Source of the DNA: a virus | Taxonomy: Duplodnaviria > Heunggongvirae > Uroviricota > Caudoviricetes | Length of the DNA stretch: 64,000 nt | Reading direction: 5' to 3' (one strand) | Virus record (IMG/VR): IMGVR_UViG_3300045977_000087 | Part shown: positions 51,306-54,389 of the stretch, in pieces | How positions within the stretch are numbered: the first letter of the stretch is position 1 | Layout of the letters: each line of letters starts with the position of its first letter | Notes under the pieces: generated by a model | Seen by the model: the letters and a program-made list of their open reading frames with translations, nothing else | What the model was told of the DNA's origin: nothing | Databases searched by the model: none | Program-made: the position numbers and the translations under genes

Positions 51306-54300
51306 ATGGAAAGAGAATTACCCTGTAGAATCTGTAAGTTTCTACTAACCTTAGTCCTCCTTGTGACCTTAGGTGTCACAAGTGTGTTTGCTCAAGACCC
51401 CCCTAACTGTGGGGCTATGAGTACACTACCTGTCAGAACTTGTGTCAATGGTAATGCCTTGTACACACCTTCTGTTAATCCAGAGTCAATAGGTAAAGCT
51501 GTGACCTGGACAATGACTGTTAACACCACTGGTGCTATCTTTGTTCAGACTGGCAATAGTGCCCCCTTACACAGAGTGCTAACAGGCACTGCTGCAGATG
51601 CTGTAGCTGTTAAGGTAGGTCCTAATGCTGGTACATTAACAATTGTTTTAACTTATGATGGTTCTGATGAAGGCTCTTGTAGTGCTTCTAGGATTGTAAG
51701 AAAAGTAGCTGTGACTGCTTCTTATCCTCCACTTAAATGTGCTCAGGATAAAGCAAAAATTACTGCTGTGGCAACTACACAATCAGTCTTTAATGGACCA
51801 TTTGTTCCCTCCCCTCCTTATCTCTACACTTTGCTACCTGAAGGAACTCAAAACCTAACAGGTATCTTTGAAGATGTGGCTGCTGGTCCTCATACCATCT
51901 TGGCCAAAGAGAATATGCTTGAGGGTTGTGAAGCTGAGTTTGCAATTAATGTTATTGCTCCTCCTGTAGTTATTGTTGAAGCTAAGTGTCCTACCTCTAT
52001 TGAGAAGAATGCTTGTGAATTCAATAACCAAGATGAGGTGAATGCTCAAGTCAAAGCTTTTGTTGATGCATTTGATGTTGTAGGTGGTACTGGTATTATC
52101 CAAAAGGAGAAAATCTTTGAACCTGCAAATGGCTTTGTTGACAAATGTGGTGGCTTACTTAAAGTAACCATTAAAGGTGTTGATGAGTGTGGACAAAGAG
52201 CAGAATGTTTTGCTACATTCAAAATCAATGCAGCCCCTGCTGTAGTACCTAAAGTCCCTGCTCCTGTTGTGGTTAAATTCTGTGAACTTACTACTGAAGA
52301 TGCTCTCAAAGAACAATTTAAAAAATTCCTTGAAGGCTTTGGTGTAAGTGGTGGATGTGCTCCTCAGCTTATCCCTATTGTTCATGGAGAACCTAATACT
52401 TGTGGTGGTGATGATATTGAAGTAAGGTTTATTGTAAGAGATAAGTGTATAGCTGACTTTGAAATCTTTTCAACATTCACTGTTGAGAGACCTTTAGCTC
52501 CACACATTGATGCAAGACCTGACAAAAATCTTCCTGCATGTATTTCTCAAGCTGACCTTGACAAAGAATGGGATGCTTTCCTAGGTAGTGTAAAAGCTAA
52601 CTCAGAATGTGGCCCTTTAGTTGTTGACCATGGTGCCCCTATTAAACCTGACAGATGTTTAGGTGGTGATGTACTTGTGAAGTTTGTAGCTAATCCAAAC
52701 TGTTTCCCTCCACTTGTGGTAGAGGCACACTTTAGAGTAGCTGAGGCTCCTAAACCTGTAATTAACCAATGTCCTCCTGCAAAAGACTTAGGCTGTAACC
52801 CTCTTGGATTACCTGCTGCAGACCAAGTAGGTGTGACTTCTACATGTGCTTATACACAAAGACATGTTGATGGACCTGTTACTGGTGATGCCTGCAACAA
52901 ACAACAAATCAGAACTTACTATATAAGCACTGACTGTTATGCAGATGCAGCACAATGTCAACAAACCTTTACTTGGAAACAAGATGATGGAATCAAAGAC
53001 TTAGTGTGTGCTAAAGGTGGAGACTTAGGTTGTAACCCTAACCTTGATACAGACTTACCTGCTCCTATAGACCCTACATTTACTGCTAACTGTCCTGCTA
53101 AAGTGACTGTTAAAGATGGGCCTATTACAGGTGAAAACTGTTTCAAACAAATGGTTAGAACTTACAATGTTGCAACAGAATGTTTCCCTGCAGGTATTGA
53201 CTGTACACAAATATTTACCTGGAAAGTTGACCTGGTTAAACCTACCATTACTAAACTTGCACAAGGCCCTACAGACTTAGGATGTAACCCAACTGATGCT
53301 CAAATTGAGGATGCATTAGGAGGAGCTACTGCTAATGATAACTGTGATGGTGACCTTACTGCTAAGCTTGATGTGGTAACTAAAGACAAGGTAGCTACAG
53401 GAGGTTGTGGATTCTCTATTACAAGAACTTGGAATGTCAAAGACATCTGTGGAAACATAGCTGATGAGGTTTCAAGAACTGTAACATTTAAAATCCAAGA
53501 AGCTCCTACCCTTGTATGTGCTCCTGATAAGAGAATTGCTTGTGATGCTCAGGTTATCTTTGATGACCCTAAAGCAGGTGAAAGCTGTGGTCCTGTACAA
53601 GTAAACATTGTTAGTACTATAACAAGTGCTGATGGTAATACTATTACAAGAACATGGGAAGCAGTTAATGAATGTGGATTGAAATCTGCTCAATGTAGTC
53701 AAACAATCATTAAAGAAGTTTGTGACTTTAATGGATGTACTCTTGGCTACTGGAAAAACCACACTCAAGCTTGGGATTGTTACCAAACTTGTACTCTGTA
53801 CAAAGATGTATTCAAAGACTCAACACTTCCTGAAGGCTTAACTCTGTTACAAGCTCTTAACTTAGGTGCTGGTGACTGTAATAACTTGGCTAGACAATCT
53901 GTAGCAGCCTTGTTAAATATCTGTGATGGTACTTTGAACTTCAAAGTAGCTGATATTGCTACGTTGCAAGCTCTAGTTAATAAAGCTTTCTTAGAAGGTA
54001 AATGTGGTGCTCTTGGTGCTCAATTAGATAGCTTCAACAATGAGGGTGGTGCTAACCACTGTGATGTTGAGAAATCTCCTAATGACAAAAATGACCACTG
54101 TAATGATGCAAGAACAAAAAAGGGGGTTGATGCTACAGGATATGTAGCCCCAACTTTCAAAGTGTTCCCTAATCCATTTACTCATGGCTTCCAAATCAAT
54201 AGCACTAACATTACTGACCCAGTAAGAATTGGTGTATATGATGTACTTGGAAGACAAGTTGAAACCAGACTGATTAACCCTCAAAACTTTGATAGTGAGT

Positions 54301-54389
54301 CATTTGGTATAGACTACCCTACAGGTATGTACAGCATTATGATTAATCAGGCCACAGAACAGAAAGTTCTGAGAGTGATTAAAAAGTAA
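51306..54389 (+). CDS. Large secreted Cys-rich repeat (HYR/SprB-like) protein with type IX secretion system C-terminal sorting domain
   Basis: Signal peptide ...LGVTSVFA/QD. Repeated Cys-containing modules (e.g. TRTWNV.D.CGN, IRTYYISTDC, VRTYNVATEC). The C-terminus KVFPNPFTHGFQI...VRIGVYDVLGRQV...GMYSIMIN...KVLRVIKK matches the Por/T9SS CTD. Confidence 0.7.
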   Translation: MERELPCRICKFLLTLVLLVTLGVTSVFAQDPPNCGAMSTLPVRTCVNGNALYTPSVNPESIGKAVTWTMTVNTTGAIFVQTGNSAPLHRVLTGTAADAVAVKVGPNAGTLTIVLTYDGSDEGSCSASRIVRKVAVTASYPPLKCAQDKAKITAVATTQSVFNGPFVPSPPYLYTLLPEGTQNLTGIFEDVAAGPHTILAKENMLEGCEAEFAINVIAPPVVIVEAKCPTSIEKNACEFNNQDEVNAQVKAFVDAFDVVGGTGIIQKEKIFEPANGFVDKCGGLLKVTIKGVDECGQRAECFATFKINAAPAVVPKVPAPVVVKFCELTTEDALKEQFKKFLEGFGVSGGCAPQLIPIVHGEPNTCGGDDIEVRFIVRDKCIADFEIFSTFTVERPLAPHIDARPDKNLPACISQADLDKEWDAFLGSVKANSECGPLVVDHGAPIKPDRCLGGDVLVKFVANPNCFPPLVVEAHFRVAEAPKPVINQCPPAKDLGCNPLGLPAADQVGVTSTCAYTQRHVDGPVTGDACNKQQIRTYYISTDCYADAAQCQQTFTWKQDDGIKDLVCAKGGDLGCNPNLDTDLPAPIDPTFTANCPAKVTVKDGPITGENCFKQMVRTYNVATECFPAGIDCTQIFTWKVDLVKPTITKLAQGPTDLGCNPTDAQIEDALGGATANDNCDGDLTAKLDVVTKDKVATGGCGFSITRTWNVKDICGNIADEVSRTVTFKIQEAPTLVCAPDKRIACDAQVIFDDPKAGESCGPVQVNIVSTITSADGNTITRTWEAVNECGLKSAQCSQTIIKEVCDFNGCTLGYWKNHTQAWDCYQTCTLYKDVFKDSTLPEGLTLLQALNLGAGDCNNLARQSVAALLNICDGTLNFKVADIATLQALVNKAFLEGKCGALGAQLDSFNNEGGANHCDVEKSPNDKNDHCNDARTKKGVDATGYVAPTFKVFPNPFTHGFQINSTNITDPVRIGVYDVLGRQVETRLINPQNFDSESFGIDYPTGMYSIMINQATEQKVLRVIKK

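Follow-up and report, generated by a model that had tools for sequence, protein, structure and literature searches.

Phage genes for proteins that carry sorting signals of a type IX secretion system (T9SS) have been reported before. Cryophage, a 76-kb Bacteroidetes phage from cryoconite, encodes T9SS type-A cargo (Bellas et al. 2020, PMC7468147). In gut phages of crAss-BACON cluster 2, open reading frames (ORFs) with a T9SS sorting domain lie near BACON-repeat genes of the crAssphage type, and one of them is fused to repeats (de Jonge et al. 2019, PMC6949934). Because of these two reports, phage-encoded T9SS cargo is already a known kind of gene. The present analysis concerns a gene of this kind in a stretch of viral DNA of 64 kb, IMG/VR record IMGVR_UViG_3300045977_000087, the whole of which is called the window below. 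The gene occupies positions 51306–54389 on the plus strand and encodes 1027 residues, from an ATG start to a stop codon within that range, exactly as an initial annotation made from the sequence had placed it. It is probably an accessory gene of a virulent-type crAss-like phage with a Flavobacterium-like host, and its product a miniature of the giant T9SS-secreted adhesins of Bacteroidota.

The initial annotation took the protein for T9SS cargo, and both of the signals required for this are present. The first, needed as T9SS cargo passes the inner membrane through Sec, is a Sec/signal peptidase I leader (residues 1–29, 51306–51392, plus strand) that reads MERELPCRICK-FLLTLVLLVTLGV-TSVFA|QD, with a charged n-region, a hydrophobic core of 13–15 residues and V-x-A at positions −3/−1. 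Cleavage at VFA|Q is predicted to leave Gln at +1. The proposed cleavable signal peptide is thus supported by direct reading and by conservation: the pattern M-x-K-x-LPC(R/S)...|Q is kept in every relative with a readable N-terminus, and Gln occupies +1 in all 11 readable leaders of the family (FA|Q, NG|Q, FG|Q, NA|Q, SA|Q). Gln at this position is the Q-rule for signal peptidase I substrates of Bacteroidetes (PMC5837995, PMC10653852), which the window leader, as read, follows. A lipoprotein reading was rejected, as Cys is not at +1 and the first mature Cys is +6.

The gene calls of the Joint Genome Institute (JGI) for P0001, an identical protein, and P0002, the copy in locus L001, begin at the internal Met38 (window 51306–51419), so that the signal peptide is lost from the annotation. 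Such starts would conceal the secretion of the protein from annotation-based screens. At the DNA level, TACCCTGTAG at 51319–51328, which encodes (L/V)PC(R/S) in the leader, is invariant, synonymous positions included, across the window and loci L001, L002, L003, L004 and L005, although the proteins are merely 45–66% identical. The synonymous substitution rate (dS) of the leader is 0.37, against 0.6–2.0 elsewhere in the gene. From this invariance it seems that the nucleotide sequence or the RNA is constrained. The idea that TACCCTGTAG is a recurring regulatory motif was rejected: no second exact copy occurs in the window, and copies with one mismatch are scattered inside genes on both strands.

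The second signal is a T9SS type-A C-terminal sorting domain (CTD; residues 946–1027, 54141–54386, plus strand), which is matched by profiles from residue 953 onward. A check with CTD profiles had been recommended, and the curated cut-offs were passed for both TIGR04183 (33.8 bits versus 23, residues 953–1027) and PF18962 (Por_Secre_tail; 29.2 bits versus 27, residues 953–1021). The strings VFPNPF, VRIGVYDVLGRQV, GMYSIMIN, KVLRVIKK and TRTWNVKDICGN, quoted in the initial annotation, were all found in the protein. The CTDs of the five relatives that were scanned scored 28.7–34.7 bits against a cut-off of 27, and PNP, D..G, G.Y and a near-terminal K are invariant in the family. A PDB sequence search with the cargo protein gave nothing beyond a weak match of the CTD to that of a T9SS substrate, chain 8glk_D (E = 0.14), and tblastn of the CTD alone against GenBank phages returned nothing. 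The CTD of T9SS type-A cargo is an immunoglobulin (Ig)-like, seven-stranded β-sandwich (PMC11285876). In the AlphaFold2 (AF2) model, residues 946–1026 form seven to eight strands with a predicted local distance difference test score (pLDDT) of 66–80, which is moderate confidence. A type-B reading was tried and rejected, since there was no CHU_C or type-B match and no sprF-like gene among the neighbors. Judged by its sequence, the identity of the protein as T9SS type-A cargo and its predicted export are well supported.

The passenger between these signals is rich in Cys. There are 50 Cys in total (4.9%): two in the leader, none in the CTD (the last 82 residues) and 48 in the mature protein, where the count is even in each delimited module. 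All modules are on the plus strand. A head composed of N1 (residues 30–150) and N2 (151–228) is encoded at 51393–51989; if the protein is tethered by its C-terminus, the head would be the cell-distal end. It is followed by three A-type stalk modules (residues 229–314, 315–399 and 400–486; 51990–52763), each a helix plus β-sandwich with four Cys. Two B-type modules (487–566 and 567–641; six Cys each) and two HYR-like modules (642–731 and 732–796; four Cys each) come next at 52764–53693, and a Cys-rich helical domain with ten Cys, here called GYWKNH (797–945; 53694–54140), adjoins the CTD. A relative of 790 residues, P0109, has a typical leader, head and stalk and ends in a Cys/His-rich tail (…CHTHCQHKGCKHECKGGHYGNGKHFCKEH…) in place of the T9SS CTD; it is either a truncated or a CTD-less variant.

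Repeated Cys-containing modules had been claimed, and two repeat families were found to lie far above chance when Smith-Waterman scores were compared with those of 200 shuffles. The B1/B2 pair reached z = 26, A1/A2 z = 11 and A2/A3 z = 8.6; B2/H1 gave z = 8.8, and the B/H pairs overall z = 7–9. BLAST self-comparison did not detect these internal repeats, for which the Smith-Waterman test against shuffles was required. The likeness to HYR and SprB repeats that had been noted held only in part. The modules have true homologs (3208 matching proteins, see below). However, the HYR_4C profile (PF23237) fell just below its cut-off (25.6 bits versus 27, E = 1.4e-5, residues 674–727), and in the window protein profile searches found no match to PF02494 (HYR) and none at E ≤ 1 to the SprB repeat PF13573. 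The relative P0012 passes the PF02494 cut-off (22.8 versus 21.7), and LapB_rpt_80 repeats are present in relatives. PHROGs holds no family for the cargo protein.

The full-length AF2 model has a mean pLDDT of 69 and a predicted template modeling score (pTM) of 0.28, values typical of a beads-on-a-string arrangement. The model shows a chain of β-sandwiches, with the A modules at pLDDT 80–90, that ends in the helical domain and then the CTD; N1 was modeled poorly, with pLDDT below 50. In Foldseek searches, the top PDB match was the GhpA grappling-hook fiber of Aureispira, followed by cadherins, DSCAM and surface-layer proteins, and a library of viral structures returned generic Ig-repeat phage proteins. 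The description of the protein as adhesin-like is borne out by this chain of Ig-like β-sandwiches, whose closest PDB folds are GhpA and cadherins.

To find cellular counterparts of the modules, the passenger, stripped of leader and CTD, was compared with 1.84 billion representatives in an exhaustive HMMER search. At E ≤ 1e-3 there were 3208 matching proteins, 482 of them at E ≤ 1e-30. Most are 2000–7000 residues long with 15–42 matched stretches, and several of those sampled are chromosomal T9SS adhesins of Bacteroidota. P0016 has 26 LapB-type repeats. P0017, which combines LapB-type repeats with a type-A CTD, is encoded on the chromosome of Gaoshiqia hydrogeniformans and has relatives in Tenacibaculum, many Flavobacteriaceae and Saprospiraceae. 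P0020 has a type-A CTD. P0021, on a 5.4-Mb chromosome, has a type-B CTD (CHU_C); downstream of its gene come a porP/sprF gene and the gene for a second SprB-type giant. P0087, on a 3.46-Mb chromosome, carries SprB repeats, SdrD_B and a type-A CTD. Right after its own leader (Gln at +1), P0087 has a head that is colinear with the phage N1-N2 (28% identity, E = 5e-10) and is followed by many A-type modules; the A-type unit is repeated many times in P0021 too. Since a head, a few stalk repeats and a type-A signal match the layout of P0087, the phage protein can be regarded as a miniature of a cellular giant adhesin. A type-A sorting signal is not known to require a dedicated partner protein. A homology search with the N1 head alone found no matches, but it also missed known family members and is uninformative on absence.

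The GYWKNH domain is not confined to this family. As a stand-alone secreted domain it is joined to a T9SS CTD in P0009, P0011, P0014 and other small proteins. Secreted proteins from outside Bacteroidota have it too, among them P0013, whose leader looks actinobacterial-type. It was modeled as a confident helical bundle, and there is no Pfam or NCBIfam model and no PDB fold analog for it. It appears to be an undescribed, widespread extracellular domain.

From these signals a route from gene to cell surface can be proposed. Host RNA polymerase would transcribe the gene from its own TAnnTTTG-type promoter, a predicted activity of a signal that lies between two terminators. The 29-residue leader would lead the product into Sec export, and a cut by signal peptidase I after VFA would expose Gln30, the residue type found at this position in most proteins that Bacteroidota secrete. 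In the periplasm the 48 Cys of the passenger, even in number per module, could form intramodule disulfides. The type-A CTD, whose family membership is established by the profiles, would deliver the protein to the T9SS translocon of the host and then be removed, and the passenger may be left tethered by its C-terminus or released. The product would be a fiber of about ten Ig-like domains, as the fold class indicates, with the strongly conserved N-terminal head at its far end. The pay-off may be that the T9SS-dependent adhesin layer of the infected cell is remodeled, by which further adsorption would be blocked and progeny spared loss on infected cells and debris.

Remodeling or masking of the adhesin layer, and with it superinfection exclusion, is our leading guess for the role of the protein, though a tentative one that we infer from work on other phages. 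F. psychrophilum uses the T9SS, its T9SS/gliding mutants resist nearly all phages of the species, among them FpV4, and SprB and RemA, both T9SS adhesins, are the presumed phage receptors (PMC9804748). It is because of this resistance and these presumed receptors that remodeling of the receptor layer is favored. A bolder form of the idea is that the phage shows a counterfeit of the host's own giant motility adhesin or phage receptor. With an authentic head and loaded through the T9SS, it would displace or mask the native layer, make the infected cell invisible to further flavophages and protect the progeny, perhaps with altered gliding or attachment. The gene would then be a portable "receptor-cloaking" cassette with interchangeable base modules, traded between unrelated phages. 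We consider this form quite doubtful.

Several points weigh against the proposed T9SS-exported surface remodeler. Expression, export, CTD cleavage, surface location and the exclusion role are predictions, and the signal peptide was read by eye and from its conservation. The T9SS of the host was deduced from relatives and from phylum-specific sequence features. The promoter element is short, has no clear −33 partner upstream of the gene and does not occur in L004. In P0109 the CTD is lacking, though that protein may be truncated. Many type-A cargo proteins of Flavobacterium johnsoniae are released rather than anchored, which makes tethering uncertain, and surface anchoring of the phage protein is itself only presumed. 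Finally, a highly conserved head would be unexpected if it tracked variable receptors.

In a rival reading the protein is exported by the T9SS for adhesion rather than exclusion. In that case the head, tethered or released, would bind a conserved external ligand on host cells, particles, mucus or polysaccharide, and the phage would benefit as infected cells were kept near susceptible ones or the community was altered in its favor. N1 is the most constrained region of the gene, with 88% identity between copies from unrelated phage backbones and a ratio of nonsynonymous to synonymous substitution rates (dN/dS) of 0.066, compared with 0.46 for the A-type stalk. Such very strong purifying selection on the head fits a conserved ligand. 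The folds match adhesion fibers (GhpA, cadherins), the head is common to the chromosomal giant adhesin P0087, and "additional capabilities" were proposed for the Cryophage cargo by its authors (PMC7468147). However, the head has no known ligand, N1 is poorly modeled and without an annotated homolog, and what a lytic phage would gain within a single infection cycle is not obvious. We regard adhesion as a rather unlikely purpose, yet it is the main rival to remodeling of the adhesin layer.

The surroundings of the gene bear on whether the protein could instead belong to the virion. Upstream, an intrinsic terminator of a deoxynucleoside monophosphate (dNMP) kinase gene lies at 51214–51250 (plus strand; a 14-bp hairpin and a U-run, −17.8 kcal/mol, z = −6.7 against 200 shuffles), which is predicted to insulate the cargo gene from read-through. 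The consensus of the Bacteroidota sigma-A −7 promoter element is TAnnTTTG, and a candidate for it, TATATTTG, is found at 51266–51273 (plus strand), 32 nt before the ATG. The element lies 25–35 nt upstream of the ATG in L001, L002, L003 and L005 as well, which makes five of the six loci with the window; L004 is the exception. In the window it stands 5–60 nt upstream of 11 of the 84 coding-strand gene starts, that of the portal gene included, versus 3.2 expected. Downstream, the strong terminator that had been ascribed to the gene was confirmed at 54406–54443 (plus strand), with an 11-bp stem at 54406–54433 containing six GC pairs, a T-run, −19.8 kcal/mol and z = −5.7. The order is thus terminator, TAnnTTTG element, cargo gene, terminator.

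The gene is also absent from the same site in close relatives. In Fpv3, just small ORFs, MazG and thymidylate synthase are found there between the homologous virion protein and the replication genes, and 11 related IMG/VR contigs, retrieved via a virion-protein alignment, have no such gene or detectable CTD ORF at that site. Two of the 13 relatives carry it, the window and L003. A scan of IMG/VR with the 198-residue neighboring protein found nothing. With terminators on both sides, a conserved promoter element of predicted activity and this sporadic presence, the gene is an autonomous accessory unit, or "moron".

As a component of the virion, the protein would be an Ig-like fiber or decoration protein, and its C-terminal β-sandwich an ordinary Ig-like domain rather than a secretion signal. 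Foldseek does find many Ig-repeat phage proteins among viral structures, tail and "virion structural" proteins included, and the gene of L004 comes after large structural-looking ORFs. However, in the window its neighbors are nucleotide-metabolism genes, not structural genes, from which it is separated as a transcription unit, and 11 of the 13 relatives do without it while having the same virion genes. The conserved cleavable Sec leader with its Gln at +1, the 48 Cys in even-numbered sets, which need an oxidizing compartment, and a CTD that exceeds curated cut-offs make a place in the virion very improbable.

Directly downstream of the cargo gene, a calcineurin-like metallophosphoesterase gene (54459–55043) was observed that is absent from the otherwise syntenic L003, because of which 51.2–55.1 kb looks like an accessory-gene hot spot. 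In the dNMP-kinase homolog (50314–51210), which is absent from phages of the FpV4 group, the region matched by the kinase profile is preceded by a CxxC...CxxC stretch (CKSCNKGYVGYKRQYYCKEC) that may be a zinc-ribbon insertion.

The phage itself was identified from its core genes. According to PHROG profiles, the window encodes a major head protein, a portal, a large terminase, a DNA polymerase and helicases, along with two giant virion proteins; phrog_11589, 6547 and 6681 match at E ≤ 1e-188, and phrog_16227 (a profile of 4401 positions) and phrog_14721 also match. The major head protein shares 78.8% identity with its counterpart in FpV4 and Fpv1-3, phages of Flavobacterium psychrophilum, and it also matches crAssphage and Bacteroides, Cellulophaga and IAS phages. 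Capsid, portal and terminase of this type and giant virion proteins that include an RNA-polymerase-like protein identify the phage as crAss-like; its host is probably Flavobacterium-like. The cargo gene is lacking in the F. psychrophilum phages with the 79%-identical capsid. The initial annotation had taken the CTD as a clue to a Bacteroidota host, and the clue is corroborated independently by the Q-rule leader, the TAnnTTTG element and the cultured relatives that infect F. psychrophilum. Since Q-rule leaders, CTD and promoter element are three independent pointers to the same phylum, a Bacteroidota host is well supported.

Lysogenic conversion, which had also been suggested, found no support. 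In favor of a conversion factor of a temperate phage, expressed from the prophage, is the promoter-gene-terminator layout, which is that of classic prophage morons. However, the 40 ORFs of the window that were scanned (most ORFs above 160 residues) did not include an integrase, recombinase or repressor; the window is 64 kb and the genomes of relatives are 88–95 kb, so about a third of the genome lies outside it. No close relative, and hence no prophage copy, turned up among 185,579 bacterial and archaeal species with one genome each, in a scan that detects close relatives only. The architecture is crAss-like, and the nearest cultured relatives are, we assume, lytic phages used for biocontrol. 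A temperate life for this phage, with the gene acting from a prophage, is thus most improbable.

Transfer RNA genes are lacking in the window. Other cargo-like genes in it were a ThiF-family (E1-like) gene at 45907–46677, an SPFH/Band-7 gene at 29131–29943 and an endonuclease VII gene at 3717–4226 inside the structural block; L001 and L007 carry a Band-7 gene as well. Three consecutive long ORFs (43706–44914, 44811–46010 and 45907–46677) overlap by about 100 nt each. They are probably overextended by the first-start rule, because the L003 homologs are shorter (394, 357 and 231 residues).

The cargo protein has about ten relatives, which all lie in phage-like contigs. Seven of them, each with a CTD, came from a word-indexed search through 5.8 billion proteins; IMG/VR contributed one further relative and the exhaustive HMMER search several more, P0140 among them. 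Every genomic context inspected is phage-like, and tblastn of the whole protein against GenBank phages found just a HYR-like piece of 12% in an Alteromonas phage. Analysis of shared ORFs revealed three unrelated backbones. The first is crAss-like and consists of the window and L003, with 33 ORFs in common; the second comprises L001, L005, L002 and L009, which have 8–28 ORFs in common among themselves; the third is L004, to which L077 probably belongs on the basis of a shared DUF5856 gene alone. The window copy is 66% identical over 1039 residues to that of L001, on an unrelated backbone, and 54% over 740 residues to that of its sister phage L003. In both L003 and L002 an alternative tail of about 400 residues replaces the GYWKNH domain (53% over 1230 residues), and both tail variants are found in both backbones (window/L003 and L001/L002). 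These identities and the distribution of the tails point to repeated horizontal exchange with module swapping.

There is a single CTD-bearing ORF in each phage locus. The cargo gene was not found to be hypervariable compared with its neighbors, as the 54% identity to the L003 copy is at the low end of the neighbors' 53–87%; the variation of the cargo gene lies in module swapping. The six full-length copies are intact, and their overall dN/dS of 0.31–0.48 indicates purifying selection. That the gene is a passively captured fragment of a host adhesin, functionless for the phage, is scarcely credible: its modules are clearly cellular in origin and it is sporadic among relatives, but the ORF is intact in no fewer than six loci, spread over three backbones, with leader, promoter element and CTD conserved, and it evolves under the constraint just given, which is strongest in the head.

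The two groups of phages have other genes in common. Small window ORFs at 20915–21262, 19689–20222, 19019–19279 and 25100–25438, in what seems to be the early region, have 44–60% identity with ORFs of the second group (L001, L002, L005, L009). Such similarity suggests that both groups draw on one pool of accessory genes and probably have overlapping hosts. In the second group, genes of the Acb2/Tad1-hairpin family lie a few kb from the cargo gene (L001, 5688–6002; L005, 4526–4900). We take this family to be nucleotide sponges directed against Thoeris and the cyclic oligonucleotide-based antiphage signaling system (CBASS).

The finding has practical and biological implications. Flavobacterium fish pathogens are targets of phage therapy; they escape phages mainly through loss of T9SS/gliding functions, since the receptors that the phages use are T9SS-dependent (PMC9804748). 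If a phage gene supplies the T9SS with an adhesin look-alike, it would be the phage-side counterpart of that interaction, and as a single gene it offers a simple experimental handle on adsorption, exclusion and adhesion. Taken together, the type-A CTD, the Q-rule leader and the TAnnTTTG element can serve as a culture-independent host marker for uncultured crAss-like phages. Phages seem to sample the giant-adhesin repertoire of Bacteroidota in miniature and to exchange the result among unrelated genomes. The finding also draws attention to GYWKNH, a widespread secreted domain that is absent from databases.

Compared with known systems, the locus is closest in kind to Cryophage. In both, T9SS type-A proteins are encoded in variable, exchangeable parts of the genome and presumably hijack host secretion, and superinfection exclusion or competition was likewise proposed, as speculation, for the Cryophage cargo (PMC7468147). 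As described, the passengers in Cryophage comprise an endoglucanase, a GH39 glycoside hydrolase and a PA14 protein, whereas the present one is a repeat-built mini-adhesin with a conserved head, in a crAss-like phage and in a gene family that spans three backbones. The crAss-BACON phages, for whose T9SS-domain ORFs the function was left open (PMC6949934), differ in their gut origin, their BACON repeats and the position of the ORFs beside head genes. No sequence relationship to them was seen in PHROGs or in tblastn of the protein and the CTD against GenBank phages.

Outside phages, the SprB/RemA-class giants (P0087, P0021, P0017, P0016) have homologous A-type and B/HYR-type modules and the same secretion route, and P0087 additionally resembles the phage protein in its N-terminal head and type-A CTD. 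The giants differ in their 2000–7000 residues and 15–42 matched stretches, and in some of them a type-B CTD goes with a dedicated partner gene, sprF; the phage version has about ten domains, and its CTD is type A in every scanned copy that has one. P0087 carries SprB repeats (PF13573), which the window protein lacks. GhpA of Aureispira (PDB 9flp, 9fly, 9flw), presumably also T9SS-secreted, is the top structural match (Foldseek E = 6e-14) and is likewise a long Ig-like chain from Bacteroidota. However, with about 10% sequence identity and low template modeling (TM) scores the likeness is at the level of domain class only, and GhpA is a chromosomal predation device.

Functional analogs exist in T5 Llp and in Lom and Bor of lambda, phage proteins that host export pathways deliver to the host envelope. 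During lytic growth, Llp blocks the receptor of its own phage, by which progeny are protected and superinfection is prevented, and Lom and Bor have the same promoter-gene-terminator layout as the cargo gene. The analogy is purely functional, as these are small lipoproteins or outer-membrane proteins of enterobacterial phages, with no T9SS link, no repeats and no homology. Set against all of these systems, three things are new here: the passenger, with its conserved head, is a giant adhesin in miniature, the phage that carries it is crAss-like and related to aquaculture phages, and one gene is common to, and recombined among, three phage backbones.

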